Part shown: positions 1 through 18,921 of the stretch, one piece after another
Layout: every line of letters starts with the position of its first letter
Position numbering within the stretch: the stretch's first letter is position 1
Position numbers and translations under genes: made by a program
DNA from: Erysipelotrichaceae bacterium OH741_COT-311
Lineage (GTDB): Bacteria > Bacillota_I > Bacilli_A > Erysipelotrichales > Erysipelotrichaceae
Direction of reading: 5' to 3'
Length of the DNA stretch: 32,000 nucleotides
Assembly: GCA_003858585.1 (NCBI GenBank)
Contig: RQZE01000005.1
Location: 1 to 32,000 of the forward strand
Notes under the pieces: model-generated
What the model was told of the DNA's origin: nothing
The model's input: only the letters and a program-made list of their open reading frames with translations
Database searches by the model: none

Positions 1-367
1 ACAAACTGTTTTCTGCAAGAAATAACACCAAATCATTTAGTTTATGTACACCAGCGCGACGAAGTGCATTCACCATTCTATCACTTAATCCAATTTCATC
101 TATTAATACTTCCTCATCTTGTACATCAGCATTTTTATCTATCAACTCTTCTTCAAAAATTTCAAAATCCTCTTCCTGCGACCAAATTTCAATTTTCTCG
201 TGCGTTTCTGGCATAATTTTAACTTCATCAATCTCGTTAACTTCGCAAATCGATTCTTGTATCAATACACTCTTCTCGACATATATTTTTTTTACTGGAT
301 TCAAACAATATGGACACACATCAAATTTTTCAGTACTAAACTCATTTCCGCACGAACCACAAATCAT
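1..367 (-). CDS. Partial CDS (N-terminal 122 aa, continues past the left edge): CxxC...CxxC zinc ribbon, acidic linker, and an RNA polymerase alpha-CTD-like helix-hairpin-helix. Fifth gene (E) of the candidate operon.
   Basis: It is absent from the ORF track because no stop falls in the window. My own minus-strand translation from the ATG at 367-365 gives MICGSCGNEFSTEKFDVCPYCLNPVKKIYVEKSV...EEDFEIFEEELIDKNADVQDEEVLIDEIGLSDRMVNALRRAGVHKLNDLVLFLAENSL, open to position 1. The ATG overlaps the upstream stop as ATGA. A GAGGGTGA SD lies 4-5 nt upstream, inside gene D. Confidence 0.6.
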   Translation of the reverse strand, partial: MICGSCGNEFSTEKFDVCPYCLNPVKKIYVEKSVLIQESICEVNEIDEVKIMPETHEKIEIWSQEEDFEIFEEELIDKNADVQDEEVLIDEIGLSDRMVNALRRAGVHKLNDLVLFLAENSL

Positions 368-1107
368 ACTTCACCCTCAATAACATCCAGCAATTTTTCA
401 TATACTTTATCATATATCTCCTGATAATCGAGCATATCCAATATATATGTTCCTGCAAGTAAATTCACATATTTAGCCACTTCTCTTATTGTTTCTCTGT
501 TATCTCCTTTATTATTCTTAACAATGTCATAAATTGCATTTAACGTTGCCTTTTGAACAGTTGGATTATTAAATGTACTTCTTCCACAAATAGTCTCTAT
601 AAAATCCTGATGATTACACATAAATTTAGTCAATTCAAAAGGATCTTCTCGTTTTTCATCATAAGTAACTCTTCCAATCCACCAAAGTCTAGAAATACCA
701 TTTCTAAATAAAGATCTATTTTTCGAATAATTAAAAAAATAGCGATTAAGCATATCTGTGCTCGAAGTAGCTTTCCAACGATATTTCATATATTCAATTT
801 GTTCACTAAGTGTATAAGCAACCCATATTCTTTCATCAGAAGCTTGAGAATCCGACAATTCTTTCATGTGATTATATATTCGTTGAGCATTTTCCGCATC
901 TGTCAATGGTTCCTTTCCTGCGGGTTGACTCATGTCAAGTATAAAATCTTCAATTTCAAAAGGTGTGTCTTTGATTTGACCAATATCACATAAAAAATCC
1001 CCCAAAGATTTCTCACCTGTTTGTATTACCTCTCTATATAACGTATTAACGTTTTTTTTTAACATTTCTATACTGTCTTCTGTAAGAAATTTAATCTTCT
1101 TCATCAT
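364..1107 (-). CDS. Hypothetical protein, about 247 aa, no domain recognised. Gene D of the candidate operon.
   Basis: The track ORF is 364..1113 and starts at a GTG. ATG codons at 1107 and 1104 sit 5-8 nt after an AGAGGTGA SD. The start lies inside the 3' end of gene C (14-17 nt overlap). The protein contains a Trp/Arg-rich block, FRNGISRLWWIGRVTYDEKREDPFELTKF. Confidence 0.7.
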   Translation of the reverse strand: MMKKIKFLTEDSIEMLKKNVNTLYREVIQTGEKSLGDFLCDIGQIKDTPFEIEDFILDMSQPAGKEPLTDAENAQRIYNHMKELSDSQASDERIWVAYTLSEQIEYMKYRWKATSSTDMLNRYFFNYSKNRSLFRNGISRLWWIGRVTYDEKREDPFELTKFMCNHQDFIETICGRSTFNNPTVQKATLNAIYDIVKNNKGDNRETIREVAKYVNLLAGTYILDMLDYQEIYDKVYEKLLDVIEGEV

Positions 1108-1957
1108 TATCACCTCTTAAATAATAAACTGCCTTAGGTATTGGGCTATCTAATAATTTTTGTGCAAAATCAAATGGCTCTAAATTTTCTAAGGTTTCTT
1201 CATCAAATAGTACATTCATTTTCTCTGCAGCTTTTCTAAGACTTCTATACCACCTAAAGTCTTCATAATTATATAAATGTGTACGTGAGTCCTTTATCTC
1301 AGTCAAAGCATAAACAAGTGCCGGAATTATTAGCATTGAATGCATTATTGGCTGAATATCAAAACTACTACTCATGTTAGCATAAATCGAAAAAGTTTCC
1401 CGAGGAACCGCTATCACAATCTTATTTCCACTTGTATTAATCTTAATATTTGTTTCTGTATCTTCCATATTAGGTATTATTGAAAAAATGGAAGCAGTAT
1501 TTGCTAAATCATCCCTAACCTTATTTACTCTTAAATTAATCTGACTACCAACAGCCAGAATACATCCTCTATCAATATCAAATCTAAAGCCCTTAAAATC
1601 TTGCGAAAACAAACTATTAGAATACTTTTCAAGTTTTCTATTTGCTATCAAAAAAGTGCAAACTTGAATTAGTCCATTTACTTCTTCATCTCTCAAAACA
1701 AATTCTTTCTCTATTTCATTCGTTAAAACAACTTTTCTAAAACATGTTTGTGTGCATTCTATATGATGTGCAATCATAACAACTTCTTTAGAAAGCAAAT
1801 CTTCCAATTCACGATTTACAAGTTTAGCTCGCAGTATAAGTCTTATATTATATCCATCCATCTTGTGTTCTACACTTGATTCAAATGAACTATTAACATA
1901 AAAATCAGCCTCTTCTGTTATAACTGGATACGTAAAATATTTACTTCTCAGTTGCAT
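1091..1957 (-). CDS. Hypothetical protein, 288 aa, acidic C-terminal tail, no domain recognised. Gene C of the candidate operon.
   Basis: Track ORF. The ATG at 1957 follows a GGAGGTGA SD (about 1963-1970) and overlaps the 3' end of gene B by 17 nt. The protein ends in GDNDEED. Confidence 0.7.
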   Translation of the reverse strand: MQLRSKYFTYPVITEEADFYVNSSFESSVEHKMDGYNIRLILRAKLVNRELEDLLSKEVVMIAHHIECTQTCFRKVVLTNEIEKEFVLRDEEVNGLIQVCTFLIANRKLEKYSNSLFSQDFKGFRFDIDRGCILAVGSQINLRVNKVRDDLANTASIFSIIPNMEDTETNIKINTSGNKIVIAVPRETFSIYANMSSSFDIQPIMHSMLIIPALVYALTEIKDSRTHLYNYEDFRWYRSLRKAAEKMNVLFDEETLENLEPFDFAQKLLDSPIPKAVYYLRGDNDEED

Positions 1958-3821
1958 ATGCTTTCACCTCCATAGCACAAAGATTATAAAAATCTAACTC
2001 AACTTTCATTCGCAAAGTCTTATCTTTTTCAAACTTTATACCACTAATAGTATTTCCAAAAATAGAGACTTTACCATAACCTAACGTAATAACAGCATTT
2101 TTTATACAAGCTTCATAGTTCTGTGTCTCACCTGACAAATATACTTCTATCGAAACATCATTTACATTTTCATTGGGTGTAAGCATGAACAAATATTGCC
2201 CTTTAGATTTATTCACACAAATTGAAACAAACTTCTTTAGTGAAACATTTTTTTTCGAAGGATTACCAGCATCATTTGATCCATCTACTGTATGAGCAGG
2301 TTGTGGATTTTTATAACCAGGATTCTTTGTGTGCCCTTCGTTATGAAACCACTCTCGCTCATCTCCCTCAGGCTCTTTTTCTCCTTCTATGGTCAAATCA
2401 TTATCTTTCACTTTATTGAAACCCGATTTATCTCCTGCCCTTGTTCGCTTAGGAACAACCTTTAATTCAACTTCAACAATTTTATCACCTACTACCTCCT
2501 CTTTCGATTTATCTTGTTGATTATCTGAAACATCTGGCAAAAACATCCCTACTCCTACAGCGTCAATTTCATCTCCACCACCAACTGATATAAACTTCTC
2601 AATAGTTTCATTTATAAATCTGTTTAACGATTTAATTAATTCACGTGCTCTAATCGGATTTTTTGCCCTATCAGGTTGCCACTTTGTATGCTCTGGATTC
2701 TCCATCACTCTAAGCTTCTCATTAATTTTATCGCCTTCAATAAACATTATCCCTACACATGGTACATGTCCTGGAAGATGATTCCTGTCCATAATTTTCA
2801 TTCCGGTTTTGCGAATCATCGCTACTTTTCTAGGTGAATCTGGTTCTCCTATTAAAATTCCAAATCTAATATTACCCAATCCCATAAAATCTTTTTCTAT
2901 CCAGTGTGTCTTATCTGATATAAGCACCTTAAAATATTGTTCTGTATAATCAATCAAGTCATCTCTATAAATTTCAATTAAATCTGCCAAGGTTTCCTTT
3001 GAGACAAGCTTATCACCTACATTAAGCATCAGCTTATTGTTCCATATAGCACCCAAAAATCCATCCAAAACAGAAACAATAATATCTTTTTGCCAATCAC
3101 CATTAGCAAATTTGTATCCCGCTATATAAATATCAGTTCCATATTCTCCCCTAGTTCGCTTATAATCTGGATCTATTGACAATTGGTCATATACCGGAGT
3201 ATTCTTTTCATTTCCAAAATAACCTATTCCTTGGGTAGTTTGTTCGTCTTCATACCTTTTGAAAGTAACTAATCTAGCTACACCTTGGTATGCCTCCTCT
3301 TCATCAATATTATAAGTGCTATAAAAAACTGTGGAAAAATCAGAACATGCAAAAGGAGCAAACTTACCAATCCCATAAGATCCTCCCGCAGTTCCTTTTT
3401 TATCCGATAATCCAGATGATTTTGTTAGGTTAGTCCAGTTTGTATTAATTTCCTTATAAACACCTGTAAGTCCAACAGTGTTAAAATCACTAATTCTCAA
3501 AAATACACAATCCTCTTTTTGAGCAGCTACCAGAGCATTTGTATAGAATTCTTTAGTAGTGATAGATTTCTGCATTTCCCAAAAATCTAAGCATCTCTGA
3601 AATACATCTTTTAAATATGGCATTCCAGGAATATTAGCTGTAGAAATAGAAAAAACATTAAAATCTACTTTAACTATCTCTCCTTTTGTCGCATCCAATG
3701 AGTTTTGACATATTTCACGCGCCAGCGACTTTAAAGGTGTTCCCCTGAAGGTCGCTATACCTGAATCATTTATCCCTTTATTTTCCCCATAATCATTTGA
3801 TGGAAATCGCCATTTTATCAT
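1941..3821 (-). CDS. GHKL-superfamily (Hsp90/MORC/sacsin-like) ATPase, 626 aa, with a charged low-complexity linker and a C-terminal beta-rich domain. Gene B of the candidate operon.
   Basis: The track ORF is 1941..3884. I prefer the internal ATG at 3821, which follows GAGGAGGG by 4 nt (protein MIKWRFPSNDY...). The Bergerat-fold motifs occur in order: N-box LAREICQNSLDA, motif II ISDFNTVGLTG, NLTKSSG, and G-box GGSYGIGKFAPF. They parallel ELISNASDALDK / DTGIGM / GTIAKSGS / IGQFGVGFYSAF of the HtpG encoded in this same window. Confidence 0.8.
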   Translation of the reverse strand: MIKWRFPSNDYGENKGINDSGIATFRGTPLKSLAREICQNSLDATKGEIVKVDFNVFSISTANIPGMPYLKDVFQRCLDFWEMQKSITTKEFYTNALVAAQKEDCVFLRISDFNTVGLTGVYKEINTNWTNLTKSSGLSDKKGTAGGSYGIGKFAPFACSDFSTVFYSTYNIDEEEAYQGVARLVTFKRYEDEQTTQGIGYFGNEKNTPVYDQLSIDPDYKRTRGEYGTDIYIAGYKFANGDWQKDIIVSVLDGFLGAIWNNKLMLNVGDKLVSKETLADLIEIYRDDLIDYTEQYFKVLISDKTHWIEKDFMGLGNIRFGILIGEPDSPRKVAMIRKTGMKIMDRNHLPGHVPCVGIMFIEGDKINEKLRVMENPEHTKWQPDRAKNPIRARELIKSLNRFINETIEKFISVGGGDEIDAVGVGMFLPDVSDNQQDKSKEEVVGDKIVEVELKVVPKRTRAGDKSGFNKVKDNDLTIEGEKEPEGDEREWFHNEGHTKNPGYKNPQPAHTVDGSNDAGNPSKKNVSLKKFVSICVNKSKGQYLFMLTPNENVNDVSIEVYLSGETQNYEACIKNAVITLGYGKVSIFGNTISGIKFEKDKTLRMKVELDFYNLCAMEVKAYATEK

Positions 3822-3849
3822 AAAACCCTCCTCAATAATAAAATATGTT

Positions 3850-4065
3850 TTATAGCTTAAACTTTTTTGTCCCACTAGAAGCATTATAAATGTGCTCTAA
3901 ATCAGCAATTGCACTTCTAAGTGTTTTTAAAATTTTATTTAAATCTTCTTGGGTATAATCATAATTATTCGAATTAGATAAGTTTCCCATAAGCTCTATA
4001 CCTTTTAAAATATTATTCATTCTTTTTTCGGCTAATCTAACAAATTTTTCTCTCTTGGATTCCAT
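3850..4065 (-). CDS. Small (71 aa) hypothetical protein, probably all-helical. First gene (A) of the candidate operon.
   Basis: Track ORF. A GGAGG SD lies about 8 nt upstream of the ATG (minus strand reads GTGGAGGTAGTGAAATG). The stop is 28 nt before the gene B start. Confidence 0.6.
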   Translation of the reverse strand: MESKREKFVRLAEKRMNNILKGIELMGNLSNSNNYDYTQEDLNKILKTLRSAIADLEHIYNASSGTKKFKL

Positions 4066-4099
4066 TTCACTACCTCCACTTACTCAAAAACACACTACA

Positions 4100-4128
4100 A
4101 ATATACTACATTTTAAAAATATATTCAA
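4100..4128 (-). promoter_or_regulatory. Putative sigma-A promoter of the candidate operon (TTGAAT-17 nt-TATATT).
   Basis: The minus strand reads TTGAAT ATATTTTTAAAATGTAG TATATT, about 35 nt upstream of the gene A start. The background is AT-rich, so a chance match is possible. Confidence 0.35.
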
Positions 4129-4212
4129 CAATTTATTTATATTTTGTTTAATAATGTAATTTCTTTAATAATTTAGAATTAAAAACAATATTCATTTTTA
4201 AATTATAGTAAA

Positions 4213-4254
4213 CAAAAAAGATATTTAATCCTATTTCTAGATTATATATCTTTT
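4213..4254. terminator. Rho-independent terminator-like hairpin downstream of the ORF6N remnant.
   Basis: Arms AAAGATAT-T-TAATC and GATTA-T-ATATCTTT flank a 9-nt loop, giving about 13 bp. A-runs and T-runs lie on both sides, so it could act on either strand. Confidence 0.5.
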
Positions 4255-4382
4255 AACTTATTTACTATATTTTTTTCTAAATTTATATCAATAGAATTTT
4301 CCTATAAGAATAGGCGCCATGATATATTGGTCATACTTTTTCTCACCATATTTACCGGATTTTCTATCAAGTCTTTATATTA

Positions 4383-4496
4383 CATTTTTGAAATTTCAAA
4401 ACTTTTCTTCCCAGCTTCTTTAATTAATAATCCTATATGATAAACTTCTATGTCATATAACATTAGAAATCTATCACGAAAAATCTGAAGTTGTTT
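4383..4496 (-). pseudogene. Remnant of the C-terminal end of a long-form ORF6N protein, in frame just after the stop of ORF 4497..4937.
   Basis: Reading straight through the TAA at 4497-4499 gives KQLQIFRDRFLMLYDIEVYHIGLLIKEAGKKSFEISKM*. I recall long-form (~330 aa) Firmicute ORF6N proteins ending in a block like ...DRFLIID..VYHIGASLKDLGKKWFAFSK, and this resembles it. That comparison is from memory and was not searched. Confidence 0.55.
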
Positions 4497-4937
4497 TTAC
4501 AGTTGTTTCAATTCCATTCTATCCAGTCTTGCAAACATCTCTTGATTAGATAGTAAAAATTTTCTCATTTCCACAAAACTATTCATAATTTTGATACTCA
4601 CTTCAACAGCTATGTCACTTTTTAATACAGCTGAATGCATTGCAATACCTCGCTCTGTGAAAACATACGGTAGATATCTTCTACCACCATGTTTATTTGA
4701 ACTTGAGGTGGCAAATTGTGACCTCAAGTTTTTAAATTCTTCTTCATTTAATTGAAATCGAAATGATTCAGGAAATCTATTCAAATTTCTTTTTACTGCT
4801 TGGTTGAATACTTTGGTTTCTACCTTATACAAGGCAGCTAAATCACTATCAACCATAACTTGTTTTCCTCTAAATGTGTAAATCATATTTCTTATATCAA
4901 CAACACCTGAAACAATTACACTTGAATTATTACCCAT
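4497..4937 (-). CDS. ORF6N (KilA-N-related) domain protein, truncated form of 146 aa.
   Basis: Track ORF with an AAGGAG SD 7 nt upstream. The sequence shows the typical ORF6N signature: IYTFRGKQVMVDSDLAALYKVETKVFNQAVKRNLNRFPESFRFQLNEEEFKNLRSQFATSS...GGRRYLPYVFTERGIAM. Confidence 0.85.
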   Translation of the reverse strand: MGNNSSVIVSGVVDIRNMIYTFRGKQVMVDSDLAALYKVETKVFNQAVKRNLNRFPESFRFQLNEEEFKNLRSQFATSSSNKHGGRRYLPYVFTERGIAMHSAVLKSDIAVEVSIKIMNSFVEMRKFLLSNQEMFARLDRMELKQL

Positions 4938-5204
4938 ATAATATCTCCTTATTATTTTAATAAATACTTAGTAACATTCATCCTATCTTCAAAATATACA
5001 CCAAATTCTACGTCTATACGTATTATGATTTACCCTTATATAACTAACTTTTAGGTTCAAAAACCTTGAATTTCCATGATGTAATTTTATCATATTTTAG
5101 TTATATTTTTATCATGAAACAAATAGCAAATCATTAATTCAGTAAATTATTAAACCTTTATATACCTATAATGATTAAAAGACAGTAAACTTAGATTTTT
5201 TACT

Positions 5205-5651
5205 CTAACTTCTTCCCTTCTTTTTATTTATCAATTCTATTACGATAGAAAAAATTATTATTACAATGATAACGATAGTCCATATTATCCACATATTATT
5301 TGCCGTTCCACCACCAGCATCAACACCATAAGTTTGAAACATAACCCCTAATACAAATCCGATTGGATAAGAAAGAGCAAGTGCAAATGGCATTATTTTC
5401 GCTTTCTTGAAACACAAAATAGTTATTGATAAAAGAATTGGCAAAAACAGCATAAAAGGTACTTGTTTCATTCTGTGCATTTCAAATAATGCATATCGAA
5501 TGATAATAAAAGAAATAATCAATATAAACAATGAAATTAAACTAATTTTATTTATTCTTTTCACACTACTACCCCCACAAATTAGAGTATACAACTCACT
5601 ACCTTGATAAAAGCCTCCCACCAAAATGATGGAAGGCTTTAAAGAATTCAC
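5205..5651 (-). CDS. Small hydrophobic membrane protein (about 4 TM), function unknown.
   Basis: The track ORF starts at a GTG at 5651. An alternative GTG near 5564 follows a GGGGGT SD-like run. The sequence is strongly hydrophobic and Ile/Phe-rich. Confidence 0.55.
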   Translation of the reverse strand: MNSLKPSIILVGGFYQGSELYTLICGGSSVKRINKISLISLFILIISFIIIRYALFEMHRMKQVPFMLFLPILLSITILCFKKAKIMPFALALSYPIGFVLGVMFQTYGVDAGGGTANNMWIIWTIVIIVIIIFSIVIELINKKKGRS

Positions 5652-5791: not shown

Positions 5792-7333
5792 TTACTCAAA
5801 TTCTATTGTCCCCGGAGGTTTTGAAGTAATATCCAACAGTACACGATTCACGTGTTTCACCTCATTTACAATACGATTTGAAATTATAGCTAACACCTCA
5901 TATGGAATCTTAGCCCAATCTGCTGTCATACCATCAATCGAAGTAACCGCACGAATTGCCACCGCATAATCATAGGTTCTTTGATCACCCATAACCCCTA
6001 CAGAACGCATATTTGTTAAAGCTGTAAAGTATTGCCAAATATCTCGATCTAAACCAGCCTTGGCAATCTCTTCTCTTAAAATCGCATCGGATTCTTTGAC
6101 AATTTCAAGTTTTTCTTCCGTTACCTCACCCAATACACGAATCCCTAAACCAGGCCCTGGAAATGGCTGTCTCCACACCATAGATTCCGGTAAACCAAGC
6201 TCAATTCCTAACTTACGAACTTCATCTTTAAACAATGTATTTAATGGCTCAATTAATTTAAATTGCATATCTTCCGGCAAGCCACCTACATTGTGATGTG
6301 ATTTAATGGTTTGCGCACTATGTGTTCCACTTTCAATCACATCAGTATACAGCGTTCCTTGTGCTAACCACTTAATATCTTCACCGGATAATAATTTCTT
6401 AACTTCCTCATCAAAAGTATAGATAAACTCATTTCCAATGATTTTACGTTTTGCCTCCGGATCACTAACACCTTTTAACTTTTCTAAAAAACGTTTTGAA
6501 GCATCTACCTTCGTTACATTAATCTTCATGTTTTCCGCAAACATTTCCATAACACCCTTAGCTTCATCTTTTCTTAGTAAGCCATGATCAATAAACATAC
6601 AATACAATTGATCTCCAATGGCCTTATGCAGTAATGCTGCTACAACTGAAGAATCAACACCACCAGATAATGCTAATAACACATTATCCTTACCGACTTG
6701 TTGACGTATTTTTTCTACTTCTTGTTCAATAAATGATTGCATAGACCAATTATTTTTAGCCTGACAAATTTCAAAGACAAAATTCTTTAATAACTCCAAC
6801 CCAAATTCTGAATGTCTTACCTCCGGATGAAATTGTACCGTATAAATCTTTTTTTCCGGATTATGACTAGATGCAAATTGACAAGTACTACTTTTCGCAT
6901 CGGCAACATAGCCATCTGCCAACTGACTTACTTGATCTCCATGTGACATCCATACCACATGTTTCTTCGGCAAGCCTTTAAATAGTAATGAATCACTTTC
7001 CACTTCAATTTCAGTATAGCCATATTCTTTTTTATGACATGCTTGTACTTTTCCACCATGTTCAAAGTGTGTCATCTGCATGCCATAACAAATACCTAAA
7101 ATAGGAATCCCTGCAGTATAGATTTTCGGATCACATTTCGGTGAATGTTCCTCGTAAACACTATTTGGTCCACCACTAAAAATAATCCCCTTGACATCCT
7201 TCATACTTAAAATCTCTTCTAAAGTAATCGTATTTGGATGTAACTCACTATACACACCAAAATCACGAATTCTACGTGCGATTAACTGGTTATATTGACT
7301 CCCAAAGTCTAAAACTATAATTTTATCTGCCAT
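5792..7333 (-). CDS. guaA: GMP synthase (glutamine-hydrolysing).
   Basis: 513 aa. The N-terminal GATase domain begins [23 protein letters not shown], the ATP-PPase P-loop is SGGVDSSV, and the C-terminus is ...KPPGTIEFE. An AGGAGG SD lies upstream. Confidence 0.97.
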
Positions 7334-15715: not shown

Positions 15716-16489
15716 ATGTATAAATGTCCAATATGCCACCAAGCCTTAATCAAAGGCTTACACAGTTTTAACTGCATCAACCAGCATAACTTTGACATCA
15801 GCAAACATGGATATGTCAATCTTTTAAAACGTAACAGCAAACACCAAGGTGATGATAGCACTTTAGTAAAGTCACGTATCGCCTTTTTAAAACAAGATTA
15901 TTATCTTTCTTTAAAACAACATTTAAATACCCTATTAGCCCAACACAAACCTCAAGTCCTTGTTGACTTAGCTTGTGGAAGCGGCTACTACACAAAAGAT
16001 GTTCCATCAACCATCACCATTGGCATTGACTTATCCAAAGATGCCATTCAATATGCCTGTAAACAAGATAAAAAGAATCAATACATCATCGCATCTATTT
16101 TCGATGTTCCTTTAATGGATCATTGTGCCGATGTTATTACCACTATTTTTGCACCAAGTGCCAACGAAGAAATTATTCGTCTTTTAAAACAAGATGGTTT
16201 ATATATTAGAGTAGATCCCGGAAGCCATCATTTACTTCAATTAAAAGAAACACTTTATGAAGAAGTATTTTTAAACCCTATCAAACAAATTCAACATCCA
16301 CGTTTAACACTAAAAAACACCATAGAAGTAAAAGAGACAATCACATTAAACCAAGAAGATCTCCTGCATCTCTTTAATATGACACCCTATCGTTATAAAA
16401 CAAAAGTTGAAAGCATAAAAAAACTTCAAGCTTTAAATACCCTTGAAGTTACCATTCACTTTATGATTTACATCTACCAAAAGAATTAA
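15716..16489 (+). CDS. rlmA: 23S rRNA (guanine-N1)-methyltransferase, RlmA/RrmA family.
   Basis: 257 aa. It has an N-terminal Zn-finger (CPICHQAL...FNCINQHNFDISKHGYVNLL) and the SAM motif VDLACGSGYY. A GAGAGAGG SD lies upstream. Confidence 0.85.
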   Translation: MYKCPICHQALIKGLHSFNCINQHNFDISKHGYVNLLKRNSKHQGDDSTLVKSRIAFLKQDYYLSLKQHLNTLLAQHKPQVLVDLACGSGYYTKDVPSTITIGIDLSKDAIQYACKQDKKNQYIIASIFDVPLMDHCADVITTIFAPSANEEIIRLLKQDGLYIRVDPGSHHLLQLKETLYEEVFLNPIKQIQHPRLTLKNTIEVKETITLNQEDLLHLFNMTPYRYKTKVESIKKLQALNTLEVTIHFMIYIYQKN

Positions 16490-16863
16490 TCTTCATGCAA
16501 TAAATTTACTTCTTGTTTCTTCTCATAAGAAACCGGAAGTGTATATTCTGCATTTAAAATCGCCTTAATTGCCACTTGTACATCTTTACTTAATTCACAA
16601 TATGATTGATAAATCTCAATCATTTCATTATTCACAATGACATGTTCATACTCTTTTTGATACTTTCCTTTACCCAGAAAATAATTCGCATCCAAACCGC
16701 TAATCTTCATATAACGTTGGATGGTTAATATATCAGGAACAACATTATCATTTTCATATCTTGAAATTTGTGCGTTGGAAACACCTAATCTATCTCCCAT
16801 TTCCCCTTGTGTTAAGCCAAGTTCCAAACGAATTCTTTTTAATTTCACTCCAACTGTATCCAT
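16486..16863 (-). CDS. XRE-family helix-turn-helix transcriptional regulator.
   Basis: The track ORF is 16486..16896. I prefer the ATG at 16863 after an AGGTGA SD. The HTH is LKRIRLELGLTQGEMGDRLGVSNAQISRYEN. Its stop overlaps the rlmA stop in a shared TTAA. Confidence 0.8.
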   Translation of the reverse strand: MDTVGVKLKRIRLELGLTQGEMGDRLGVSNAQISRYENDNVVPDILTIQRYMKISGLDANYFLGKGKYQKEYEHVIVNNEMIEIYQSYCELSKDVQVAIKAILNAEYTLPVSYEKKQEVNLLHED

Positions 16864-16921
16864 ACCATCACCTAGAAACAATATAGTATATTTCAACTTT
16901 AATAATTTATTTTTATCTAAA

Positions 16922-16946
16922 TATGCAAAAACAATCTTTTTGCATA
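16922..16946. promoter_or_regulatory. Perfect 10-bp inverted repeat (TATGCAAAAA-N5-TTTTTGCATA), a candidate operator between the XRE gene and htpG.
   Basis: Read directly from the sequence. It lies about 59 nt upstream of the XRE start and about 20 nt upstream of the htpG -35. Confidence 0.45.
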
Positions 16947-16965
16947 AATAGTAAATTGAATCTAC

Positions 16966-16994
16966 TTGCTTAAAGCAAAAGATAGTGATATAGT
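16966..16994 (+). promoter_or_regulatory. htpG sigma-A promoter (TTGCTT-17 nt-TATAGT).
   Basis: The hexamers and 17-nt spacing were read directly. The promoter sits immediately upstream of CIRCE. Confidence 0.6.
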
Positions 16995-16998
16995 AGTT

Positions 16999-17025
16999 TT
17001 AGCAGTCTTTATTACAGAGTGCTAA
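16999..17025 (+). promoter_or_regulatory. CIRCE element (HrcA operator).
   Basis: TTAGCAGTC-N9-GAGTGCTAA compared with the consensus TTAGCACTC-N9-GAGTGCTAA has one mismatch. It lies between the -10 box and the AAGGAG SD of htpG. Confidence 0.85.
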
Positions 17026-17037
17026 AGGAGTGAAGAA

Positions 17038-18921
17038 ATGAAAAAACAATTTAAAGCAGAATCAAAACGATTATTAGATTTAATGATCCATTCTATCTAC
17101 ACGAATAAAGATATTTTTTTAAGAGAATTAATCTCAAACGCATCGGATGCACTGGATAAGCGCTATTTCTTAGCCTTAAGCGACGATAAGGTAAAACCTT
17201 ATACAAGTGAACTAGCCATTCAAATTCAAGTAGATAAAGACCATCGCACTCTTACGATTGTAGATACAGGAATCGGTATGATGCAAGATGAATTAGAAAA
17301 CAACTTAGGAACGATTGCCAAAAGTGGTAGCCTAGACTTCAAACAAAAAAATACAGATGAAAACATTGACATTATCGGACAATTTGGAGTGGGCTTCTAC
17401 AGTGCCTTTATGGTCGCAAAAAAAATTACAGTAGAATCCAGATCACCGTTTGAAGAAACAGCTTACTGTTGGCAAAGCGAAGGGGAAGATGGCTATACGA
17501 TAAAACCAATCTTAAAAGAAGAGATTGGAACAAAAGTCATTCTGGAATTAAAAGAAGATAGCGAAGAAGAAAACTATAGCGAGTATTTAGATAGCTATAA
17601 AATTCAACAATTAGTAAGTAAATACTCCGATTATATTCACTATCCGATTAAAATGGATATTACTACAGAAAAAACAAAAGAAGATAGCGAAGAAAAAGAA
17701 ATTATTATCGAAACCAAAACATTAAATTCCATGGTCCCTTTATGGAAACGTAACAAAAAAGAAATTACAGAAGAAGAATACAATAATTTCTACATGAATA
17801 AGTTTACAGATTGGAATAAACCAGCTAAAGTGATCCACTATAACATTGAAGGAAACATCTCATACAATGCTTTATTATTTATTCCTTCTGCTGTTCCATA
17901 TAACTTCTATTCAAGCGAATATCAATCCGGTTTACAACTTTACAGCAAAGGCGTATTCATCAAAGATAAAGCCCATGAATTAGTACCCGAATACTTCCGA
18001 TTTGTAAAAGGACTAGTAGACTCAAATGACTTAAATTTAAATATTTCTCGCGAAATTTTACAACAAGATCGACAAATGAAATTGCTTGAGAAAAGCATCG
18101 AGAAGAAGATTAAAAATACACTTGAAGATTTGTTGAAACATGATCGCAGTCAATACGAAGCCTTCTTCGATAACTTCGGTTTACAATTAAAATATGGCAT
18201 TTACCAAGACTACGGCATGCATGCGGAAACCTTAAAAGATTTGATTCTATTTAAATCAAGTTACCAAGATCAATATACTACACTAAAAGAATATATAAGT
18301 CGTTTAAAAGAAAACCAAGAACAAATCTACTATGTAGCCGGTCATGATGTAGAAACCTTAAAAAAATTACCACAAATGGAACAATTGCTGGATAAAGGCT
18401 ATGAAGTATTATACTTATTGGATTCTGTAGATGAGTTTGCCTTAAATATTCTAAGAATGTACGATGGCAAAGCCTTTAAATCGGTACAACAAGGTGAACT
18501 GGACTTACAAAGTGAAGAAGAAAAACAAGCAAACAAAGAAAAAATCGAAGAAAATAAAGACTTATTATCCGCGATTCAAGAAGCAATTAAAGAACAGGTA
18601 AAAGAAGTAAAAATATCTTCACGTTTAAAGAGTCATCCTGTATGTTTAGTAGCTGATGAAGGTTTATCCATTGAAATGGAAAAAGTATTAAAACAAAATC
18701 CGGAAGCCAAAGACATTCAAGCAACAAAGATTTTAGAAATTAATCCAAATCATCAACTATTTGAAACACTTCAAAAAGTACACCAAAACAATCCGGAACT
18801 CATCAAAGACTATGCAGAGGTTTTATATGATCAAGCCTTACTGATTGAAGGTTTACCAATTAAAGATCCAATTCGTTATGCCAATAAAGTATGTCAATTG
18901 ATGATTGATGCAAATAAATAA
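17038..18921 (+). CDS. htpG: Molecular chaperone HtpG (Hsp90).
   Basis: 627 aa. Canonical motifs are present: ELISNASDALDK, DTGIGM, GTIAKSGS and GQFGVGFYSAF. Confidence 0.97.
   Translation: MKKQFKAESKRLLDLMIHSIYTNKDIFLRELISNASDALDKRYFLALSDDKVKPYTSELAIQIQVDKDHRTLTIVDTGIGMMQDELENNLGTIAKSGSLDFKQKNTDENIDIIGQFGVGFYSAFMVAKKITVESRSPFEETAYCWQSEGEDGYTIKPILKEEIGTKVILELKEDSEEENYSEYLDSYKIQQLVSKYSDYIHYPIKMDITTEKTKEDSEEKEIIIETKTLNSMVPLWKRNKKEITEEEYNNFYMNKFTDWNKPAKVIHYNIEGNISYNALLFIPSAVPYNFYSSEYQSGLQLYSKGVFIKDKAHELVPEYFRFVKGLVDSNDLNLNISREILQQDRQMKLLEKSIEKKIKNTLEDLLKHDRSQYEAFFDNFGLQLKYGIYQDYGMHAETLKDLILFKSSYQDQYTTLKEYISRLKENQEQIYYVAGHDVETLKKLPQMEQLLDKGYEVLYLLDSVDEFALNILRMYDGKAFKSVQQGELDLQSEEEKQANKEKIEENKDLLSAIQEAIKEQVKEVKISSRLKSHPVCLVADEGLSIEMEKVLKQNPEAKDIQATKILEINPNHQLFETLQKVHQNNPELIKDYAEVLYDQALLIEGLPIKDPIRYANKVCQLMIDANK

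Follow-up and report, generated by a model that had tools for sequence, protein, structure and literature searches.

We have analysed a window of 32,000 nucleotides (nt) from Erysipelotrichaceae bacterium OH741_COT-311 (contig RQZE01000005.1, positions 1 to 32,000 of the forward strand), which begins with a compact gene cassette built around a GHKL-type ATPase. The cassette lies within positions 1-4128 and is read entirely from the minus strand. It comprises gene A (3850-4065; called as an open reading frame (ORF) of 71 amino acids (aa)), gene B (1941-3821; the 626-aa ATPase), gene C (1091-1957; 288 aa), gene D (364-1107; 246-247 aa) and the N-terminal 122 codons of gene E (1-367), which runs off the window edge. 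B and C overlap by 17 nt, C and D by 14-17 nt, and D and E share the letters ATGA; A and B do not overlap and are separated by a spacer of 28 nt. Shine-Dalgarno sites can be read from the sequence for all five genes, namely GGAGG (A), GAGGAGG (B), GGAGGTG (C), AGAGGTG (D) and GAGGG (E). The longest ORF for B spans 1941-3884 on the minus strand, and we placed the real start at the ATG at 3821 because a 100%-identical NCBI protein (P0001) has 626 aa and because the alignment to the PADLOC profile sets in at residue 22 of that ORF. For D, the start given by NCBI is 1104, which yields 246 aa. The complete ORFs A to D have full-length homologues in the same order across 80 loci, and A keeps ten invariant positions, so that these ORFs are not due to chance. 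An earlier note, made from the sequence alone, had described a coupled minus-strand operon of five genes, and this description holds, with intact genes, overlapping or abutting stops and starts, and a strong Shine-Dalgarno site for each gene; A-B-C-D is a translationally coupled unit. On the other hand, the sigma-A-like promoter that the note had placed before gene A fares less well. The site exists (4100-4128, minus strand; -35 TTGAAT, 17-nt spacer, -10 TATATT; 9/12 matches) and a promoter there is plausible, but the site is not statistically distinguishable from shuffled sequence. Because promoter-like matches in this AT-rich region are no commoner than in shuffles (18 observed vs 15.4 +/- 4.0), we do not count it as evidence.

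Three of these genes belong to a catalogued family. The PADLOC model PDC-M33A matched B with E = 1.5e-216 (long-ORF residues 22-644 aligned with positions 1-625 of the 627-position profile), PDC-M33B matched C over its full length with E = 3.1e-92, and PDC-M33C matched D over its full length with E = 1.4e-82; in Pfam, D matched DUF6339 with E = 6.9e-55. Genes A and E have no PADLOC model. PDC-M33 was put forward as an untested multi-gene phage defence candidate on the principle of 'guilt-by-embedding' (Payne et al. 2024, bioRxiv 10.1101/2024.01.29.577857). The window's cassette has the same three hidden Markov model families, with the same gene order and adjacency. Gene A, gene E, and the C5 methylase and nuclease partners described below for relatives are not in the PDC-M33 model, for which no mechanism was proposed. 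Neither PDC-M33 nor DUF6339 is mentioned in any paper of the literature searched. Accordingly, the note's proposal of an uncharacterised candidate defence system stands as regards experimental characterisation, but the system is already present in PADLOC. The note had allowed that profile matches of all components to a named system would speak against it, and this applies in part, as such matches were found for B, C and D, with A and E outside the model. It had also held that only B and E carry domains that can be named; the domains of E are supported, but D is a DUF6339 protein and B, C and D are PDC-M33A, B and C. The locus is thus of a catalogued but experimentally uncharacterised kind, namely a PDC-M33 cassette of paraMORC2 type that is linked to restriction-modification. 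What is added here is the small subunit A, the clade-specific subunit E, the near-obligate partnership with a C5 methylase, and a prediction of what lies beyond the window edge.

The reading of B as a divergent GHKL ATPase agrees with the conservation of its family, in which motifs I-IV are the most conserved positions when scored in 76 representatives at 30-50% identity. In motif I (the N box, ExxxNxxD), E36, Q39, N40, S41 and D43 are invariant. Motif II (DxGxG) takes the variant form D-F-N-T-x-G-L, with D112, T115 and G117 invariant; motif III (GxxGxG) has invariant G147, G150 and G152, and G228 and T229 of motif IV (GT) are at least 90% conserved. An ExxxH motif is also present (E374-N-P-E-H378, with E374 and H378 at least 90% conserved), and we infer that it lies in the S5 fold. 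HATPase_c_3 was the only recurrent Pfam family among the representatives (7/76, best E = 0.0046). B belongs to a large family: among 1.84 billion representatives, a profile search reached 3823 clusters (50% identity) at E <= 1e-3 and at least 1600 at E <= 1e-30. When remote GHKL relatives of B were sought by profile search, the best 150 matches were all full-length members of the family, of about 620-650 aa.

Relatives of B were collected by a degenerate-pattern scan of 185,579 species genomes, which yielded 282, and 80 loci were retrieved (cited below as L with a number). Most of their hosts belong to Clostridia, Erysipelotrichaceae and Negativicutes; Bacteroidales and Treponema contribute a few. 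B, C and D stand in this order, mostly overlapping, in 74/80 loci, and the other six are cut by contig ends, so that all untruncated loci keep the order; co-occurrence across genomes, which the earlier note had named as a check, is thus seen for B, C and D. Gene E is less constant. It lies directly 3' of D only in the clade whose B is at least about 40% identical to that of the window, it is upstream of A in three loci, and elsewhere it is absent, leaving about half of the family without E.

When the neighbouring genes were clustered, C5 cytosine methylases came next in frequency to B, C and D, being present in 56/80 loci, and 59/60 of the linked methylase proteins match Pfam DNA_methylase. 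The position of these genes is narrow: in 491 kb of inner flank, 60/60 are no more than 4 kb away from the cassette, and 425 kb of outer flank contain none. Among the 42 loci that have at least 4 kb on both sides, 34 carry a C5 methylase within 4 kb. The cassette is thus almost obligatorily linked to a C5 DNA methylase.

In the clade of the window, the order of genes is A-B-C-D-E-X-M, where X is a restriction-enzyme-like protein and M a C5 methylase of about 325 aa. In L005, L006, L007, L011 and L088/L089, X begins 14-20 nt beyond E, and the methylase comes after X; in L091, X lies 3' of E and the contig ends inside X, and in L008, X and the methylase are upstream of A. Every locus of this clade with enough sequence pairs E with X and a C5 methylase. 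The N-terminus of X has conserved E48, D68 and G-x-K83-T and matches PADLOC models of type II restriction enzymes, and by these residues the region reads as PD-(D/E)xK-like. X also has a B3-like DNA-binding domain related to R.NgoAVII, and R.NgoAVII provides the only PDB matches of X (E = 2e-4). Because the window's clade reads A-B-C-D-E-X-M, X and M are expected to the left of the window. The earlier note had suspected further components on that side, and E indeed runs off the edge, with 122 codons here vs 900-1280 aa in relatives.

Other branches of the family carry other nucleases. Nine linked methylases are fused to an NgoFVII-type PLD+B3 endonuclease (680-aa fusions) with a helix-turn-helix (HTH) controller gene alongside. 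L009 and L010 have an operon of A, methylase, FokI-like nuclease, B, C, D and E with gaps of 12-52 nt, and in L012 that methylase lies upstream of B. On a Priestia plasmid, a MutH/Sau3AI endonuclease and dcm adjoin the cassette, and Vsr occurs in at least 11 loci.

About 33 loci carry a methylase of 525-590 aa with a helical insertion of about 170 aa between motifs VI and VIII (for example L048:13554-15215(-) and L013:6446-8077); 196-215 residues separate these motifs vs 39-40 in ordinary methylases. A reciprocal search was made with the insertion domain alone against metagenome contigs, using a closer subset of the insertion domains, as the alignment of all of them was too divergent. The cassette was present in 71/80 of the loci found, and D-C-B-A was directly convergent to the methylase in 38/39 loci flanked by 3.5 kb or more on either side. 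Although near-identical contigs are numerous, identity to the query ranged from 41 to 100%, so that several lineages are represented. The insertion-bearing subfamily of methylases is found essentially only beside A-D, and the insertion may be a docking domain for the ATPase complex.

The cassette is accessory and mobile, as had been proposed: relatives are carried behind guaA by an integrase/ParAB/RepA element, stand amid type IV secretion genes, or belong to plasmids and a prophage. In L085 (1069-7268), guaA is followed by a tyrosine integrase, NikA-like, ParA/ParB and RepA_N genes and then by A-B-C, with C 81% identical to that of the window. In L090 (1-9553), a close relative sits on a conjugative element with type IV secretion (VirD4/VirB4-like), PrgI and lysozyme genes; this element also bears a Colicin-DNase/immunity-like pair. 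Plasmid copies occur in L. lactis and Ligilactobacillus, adjoining AbiGI/GII and an AlwI-family enzyme (L. lactis pS127), and one copy is on the Priestia plasmid. In a temperate C. innocuum phage (L094, NatCom_9291, PV036421.1; 1907-9912), A-B-C-D lies beside the integrase with a longer D (354 aa), and this cassette looks like prophage-borne defence cargo. There, A-B-C-D is followed by a DNA methyltransferase and a hypothetical protein of 545 aa. One further copy sits in a defence island with GmrSD, RelB and PDC-S14. Defence-type genes also stand directly upstream of some cassettes, namely a 1002-aa SIR2_2 protein (L061:6521-9529), a Schlafen-group-3-like helicase (L009:4293-6284) and a GmrSD-like gene (L005:5514-6521). 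A fixed core-genome position is ruled out by the differing contexts between loci, except in several Veillonella. In seven of these (L044, L047, L049, L050, L051, L055 and L056) the cassette occupies one conserved site after genes of 273 aa, 202 aa and 406 aa (GNAT/SCP2), the last of which overlaps the B ORF, and gene A was undetected in the cassette. This site is the sole hint of a lineage-fixed position.

Considering these associations together, we propose that the cassette is the ATPase ('restriction-side') module of a mobile restriction-modification-like defence system linked to C5 methylation, a reading that we consider probable, with some reserve. Alternatively, the cassette could be a self-contained defence system, for example of the abortive-infection or sensor-effector kind, which merely travels with restriction-modification genes and in which the methylase has no mechanistic part. 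PDC-M33 was defined by embedding inside other systems, and among the neighbours of the cassette are GmrSD, RelB, PDC-S14, AbiGI/GII, the SIR2 protein and the Schlafen-like helicase. The partner methylases and nucleases also come from several unrelated families, as would suit independent travel. However, ordinary clustering in defence islands does not give a near-obligate pairing with one enzyme class at the distance of a single gene. The confinement of C5 methylases to the inner flank (60 vs 0), the cassette in 38/39 of the reciprocal-search loci, the methylase subfamily with a private insertion essentially only beside ABCD, and the placement of methylase and nuclease genes inside the A...B operon all speak against mere co-travel, and we judge a self-contained system to be doubtful.

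Several observations weigh against the methylation-linked module that we prefer. The well-flanked loci L050 and L081 have no methylase, which also counts for a self-contained system, and the derivation of PDC-M33 from embedding in BREX, DISARM or type I systems likewise suits an independent system. The insertion-methylase loci (about 33 genome and 38 metagenome loci) consist of the methylase and ABCD only and have no nuclease gene. In A, C and D we recognised no fold of a nuclease, helicase or methyl-reader. For B, a GHKL fold is suggested by its motifs and by weak recurrent Pfam matches; the window's own B gave no match above threshold in Pfam, NCBIfam or PDB sequences, and an hhalign comparison of the B family with HtpG (the E. 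coli sequence, and the window's own HtpG at 17038-18918) was not significant. X and M probably lie about 2.4-5 kb left of the window, as extrapolated from 7 related loci, and the window itself contains no methylase or nuclease gene. The earlier note had remarked on this last point, which is true of the window but is most likely an effect of its edge, since relatives of the clade carry both genes beyond E. Finally, no experimental data on the PDC-M33 cassette were found in the literature searched.

The preference for C5 over N6 methylases also raises the question of DNA repair. In this case, the cassette would be a MutL-like repair or epigenetic-maintenance module for C5 methylases, dealing with T:G mismatches from deamination of 5-methylcytosine together with Vsr, or would stabilise mobile elements, and would not serve immunity. 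The association is specific to C5 and not N6 methylases, Vsr is found in the at least 11 loci mentioned above, a MutH/Sau3AI-family endonuclease adjoins the cassette on the Priestia plasmid, and E. coli MutL stimulates Vsr and MutH (PMC2292703). However, most loci lack Vsr, the cassette occurs sporadically and is borne by conjugative elements, by plasmids and by a prophage, with known defence genes beside it, and a machine of four or five subunits with a DNA-binding protein of about 920 aa would be excessive for short-patch repair. We consider a repair or maintenance role improbable.

Judged from its motifs, B fits the description of paraMORC2, a GHKL+S5 family found mainly in Gram-positive bacteria and cyanobacteria and having "a strongly conserved ExxxH motif" (Iyer, Abhiman & Aravind 2008, PMC2292703). 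B shares with it the GHKL motifs, the ExxxH motif and a sporadic, mainly Gram-positive spread on mobile elements. Operons of paraMORC2 were described as restriction-modification operons with cytosine methylases, Vsr and SFII helicases (PMC2292703), and this neighbourhood (cytosine methylases, Vsr, SFII helicases or endonucleases) is matched by the loci here. B was likened to paraMORC2 from the published description, and its constant partners A, C and D (DUF6339) are unnamed in that paper. The S5 motif of MORC proper, GhXhhpXXRhl, is not found: inspected by eye, the B stretch G340-M-K-I-M-D-R-N-H-L lacks a conserved Arg where the motif has one, the residues after G-M-K-I are not conserved in the family, and the B of the window has no HATPase_c_3 match. 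From MutL, B differs in having no detectable sequence similarity beyond the motifs and no MutS partner, and its genes are mobile and accessory. Mza is also a defence system around a divergent GHKL ATPase, and there is a weak resemblance between the HTH of E and the C-terminal end of MzaA (E = 0.007), but here there is no AIPR domain and no DUF4263 nuclease fused to B. Membership of Mza was rejected, as no Mza model in PADLOC matched B, C or D.

The remaining subunits offer fewer points of comparison. Gene A encodes a helical protein with homologues detected by BLAST in 62/84 loci, mostly directly upstream of B. Its invariant positions among 42 aligned sequences are F8, R10, R15, L25, G27, N28, Y35, Y37, F69 and L71, and nothing significant was found for it in Pfam, NCBIfam, PADLOC or the PDB; matches to CARF/Csm6 (E about 1e-3, far below the cut-offs) were dismissed as chance. 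A second A-like gene, about 40% identical to A, occurs at L014:19419-19646 and L015:11078-11308, beyond a methylase-nuclease fusion and an HTH controller gene; next to it comes a conserved gene of 81 aa that matches no family. This A-like gene may head another, unrecognised cassette.

In the AlphaFold2 model of C (predicted local distance difference test score, pLDDT, 88), the N-terminal domain is beta-rich and the C-terminal part is a helical bundle. With this model, Foldseek returned no PDB match at E <= 1e-3, and its BFVD matches were uninformative; PDB sequences gave nothing in a profile search, and C has no Pfam or NCBIfam match above threshold. The model of D (pLDDT 83) is all-alpha, and its best Foldseek match in the PDB had E = 0.25; for C and D alike, the PDB matches were generic beta-sandwich or helical-repeat noise. 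For D, DUF6339 was the sole match above threshold in Pfam, NCBIfam and PDB-sequence searches. In C (72 sequences), H65, C68, T71 and R74 are invariant, E67 is present in 71/72, and D120, K146 and K179 are at least 93% conserved. In D (70 sequences), N19, N73, D91, E92, R93, W95, R110, L141, W143, Y213 and D224 are invariant, and W142 and D150 are at least 97% conserved. The conserved polar residues of C (H65, E67, C68, T71, R74, D120, K146, K179) and of D (N73, D91, E92, R93, R110, D150, D224) may form active or binding sites, and they fit no recognised nuclease motif.

For E, the zinc ribbon and the alpha-CTD-like helix-hairpin-helix (HhH) domain named in the earlier note are supported by the CxxC...CxxC pattern at its N-terminus and by matches to NCBIfam rpoA (alpha-CTD) models with E = 3e-6; in the window, the two are joined by an acidic linker. 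Full-length homologues of E have 900-1280 aa, and about 920 aa in the clade of the window. A profile of the full-length protein matched PDB sequences of sigma-70 region 4 (E = 1e-8) and alpha-CTD (E = 4e-7), including Spx-alpha-CTD chains. The recognisable parts are the zinc ribbon, one or two alpha-CTD-like HhH domains and a sigma-70 region-4-like HTH, and about 600 aa match nothing in the profile search. Since sigma region 4 and alpha-CTD are classic targets of phage take-over factors, these same matches could be taken to mean that, in the E-containing clade, the domains of E are decoys that sense phage proteins and switch on the ATPase complex, with the methylase and nuclease as a separate first line. 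However, both domains are generic DNA-binding folds and E is absent from about half of the family, and we regard this decoy role as very improbable.

Under the methylation-linked reading, a mechanism can be outlined. The methylase would mark host DNA as self. At unmethylated incoming DNA, a dimer of B would close on ATP binding, in the manner of the MutL, MORC and topoisomerase ATPases, and together with its obligate partners A, C and D it would clamp or loop the DNA and license cleavage. E would be the DNA-binding arm that anchors the DNA through its zinc ribbon, alpha-CTD-like HhH and sigma-region-4-like HTH. Cleavage would be made by the linked site-specific nuclease, which would be X in the clade of the window and a PLD, FokI-like or MutH/Sau3AI-like enzyme elsewhere. 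For the minimal loci with a methylase and ABCD, either C or D would have to hold a catalytic site that escapes recognition, or the machine would act without cleavage.

The prototypes of the FokI-like, BfiI/NgoFVII-like, Sau3AI-like and AlwI-like families separate recognition from cleavage or need two sites. Many of the partner nucleases here belong to these families and would fit a DNA-looping role, as a hypothesis, and such a role was proposed in 2008 for ATPases of this kind (PMC2292703). For R.NgoAVII and R.CglI, which are PLD+B3 R-proteins, an ATPase partner and ATP hydrolysis are required for cleavage (PMC4267654, PMC5861437). Of the components of these ATP-dependent CglI/NgoAVII systems (PMC4267653, PMC4267654, PMC5861437), a C5 methylase and a B3-like R-protein are present in relatives, predicted left of the window and absent from the window itself. 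The cassette may act in a similar way but does not belong to this family, as it has a GHKL complex instead. MutL with MutH and Vsr offers another precedent, in that a GHKL ATPase licenses a latent endonuclease by way of a methylation mark, and Vsr and a MutH/Sau3AI nuclease both occur in the loci here.

The minimal loci bring in a further model. In BREX, a methylase marks self against non-self, several subunits are ATPases or of unknown kind, no nuclease is obvious, and action without cleavage is presumed. The loci with only a methylase and ABCD are likewise without an obvious nuclease; on the other hand, the proteins are unrelated and BREX uses an N6-adenine methylase (PglX). It is conceivable, though we think it unlikely, that the methylase+A-B-C-D loci and the window's version represent a bacterial counterpart of eukaryotic MORC silencing, in which a methylation-gated GHKL clamp would entrap, compact or silence unmethylated DNA, or that cutting would be done by a new fold in C (H65/E67/C68/R74) or D (D91/E92/R93).

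A role of MORC and paraMORC proteins in bacterial restriction-modification operons was predicted in 2008, and the literature searched holds no test of it for this family. The cassette family is not a new category; it is large, compact and tractable. Because the cassette is locked to a methylase, five to seven genes allow a direct test of whether 5-methylcytosine separates self from non-self. The cassette may reveal how a GHKL clamp licenses or replaces a nuclease and what C and the DUF6339 protein do, and it would bear on how the MORC function of eukaryotes arose. As its carriers are conjugative elements of gut and oral Firmicutes, dairy Lactococcus plasmids and a prophage, it is of relevance to gene flow and to the phage resistance of starter cultures.

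In the window, the chromosomal flank of the cassette is guaA (5792-7333, minus strand), and a 146-aa ORF6N-domain gene (4497-4937, minus strand; Pfam ORF6N E = 6e-36) lies between guaA and the cassette, as the earlier note had indicated for both neighbours. The ORF6N gene is cargo of the mobile-element type outside the conserved cassette. Its ORF6N domain is intact, and the sole terminator-like hairpin of the region sits within the gene (4687-4667). Between the ORF6N gene and guaA there is also a predicted membrane protein of 148 aa (5205-5651, minus strand) with no family match. Unlike in the relative L085, no integrase is found between guaA and the cassette. The gap of 430 nt between the ORF6N gene and gene A (4066-4496) is non-coding and very AT-rich (GC about 26% for 4001-5000) and holds several promoter-like matches; it could harbour regulatory elements, or a scar left by the element that brought in the cassette. 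The other genes of the window are housekeeping genes, including those for a permease, NrdD, an ABC-F protein and HtpG. The last is a bona fide Hsp90/HtpG (17038-18921, plus strand; Pfam HSP90 E = 4e-119, HATPase_c_3 E = 7e-13), and two very different GHKL proteins, B and HtpG, thus lie within 15 kb of each other in the same window. The genes at 15716-18921 are on the plus strand amid mostly minus-strand genes, and the GC skew is slightly positive at 17-19 kb.

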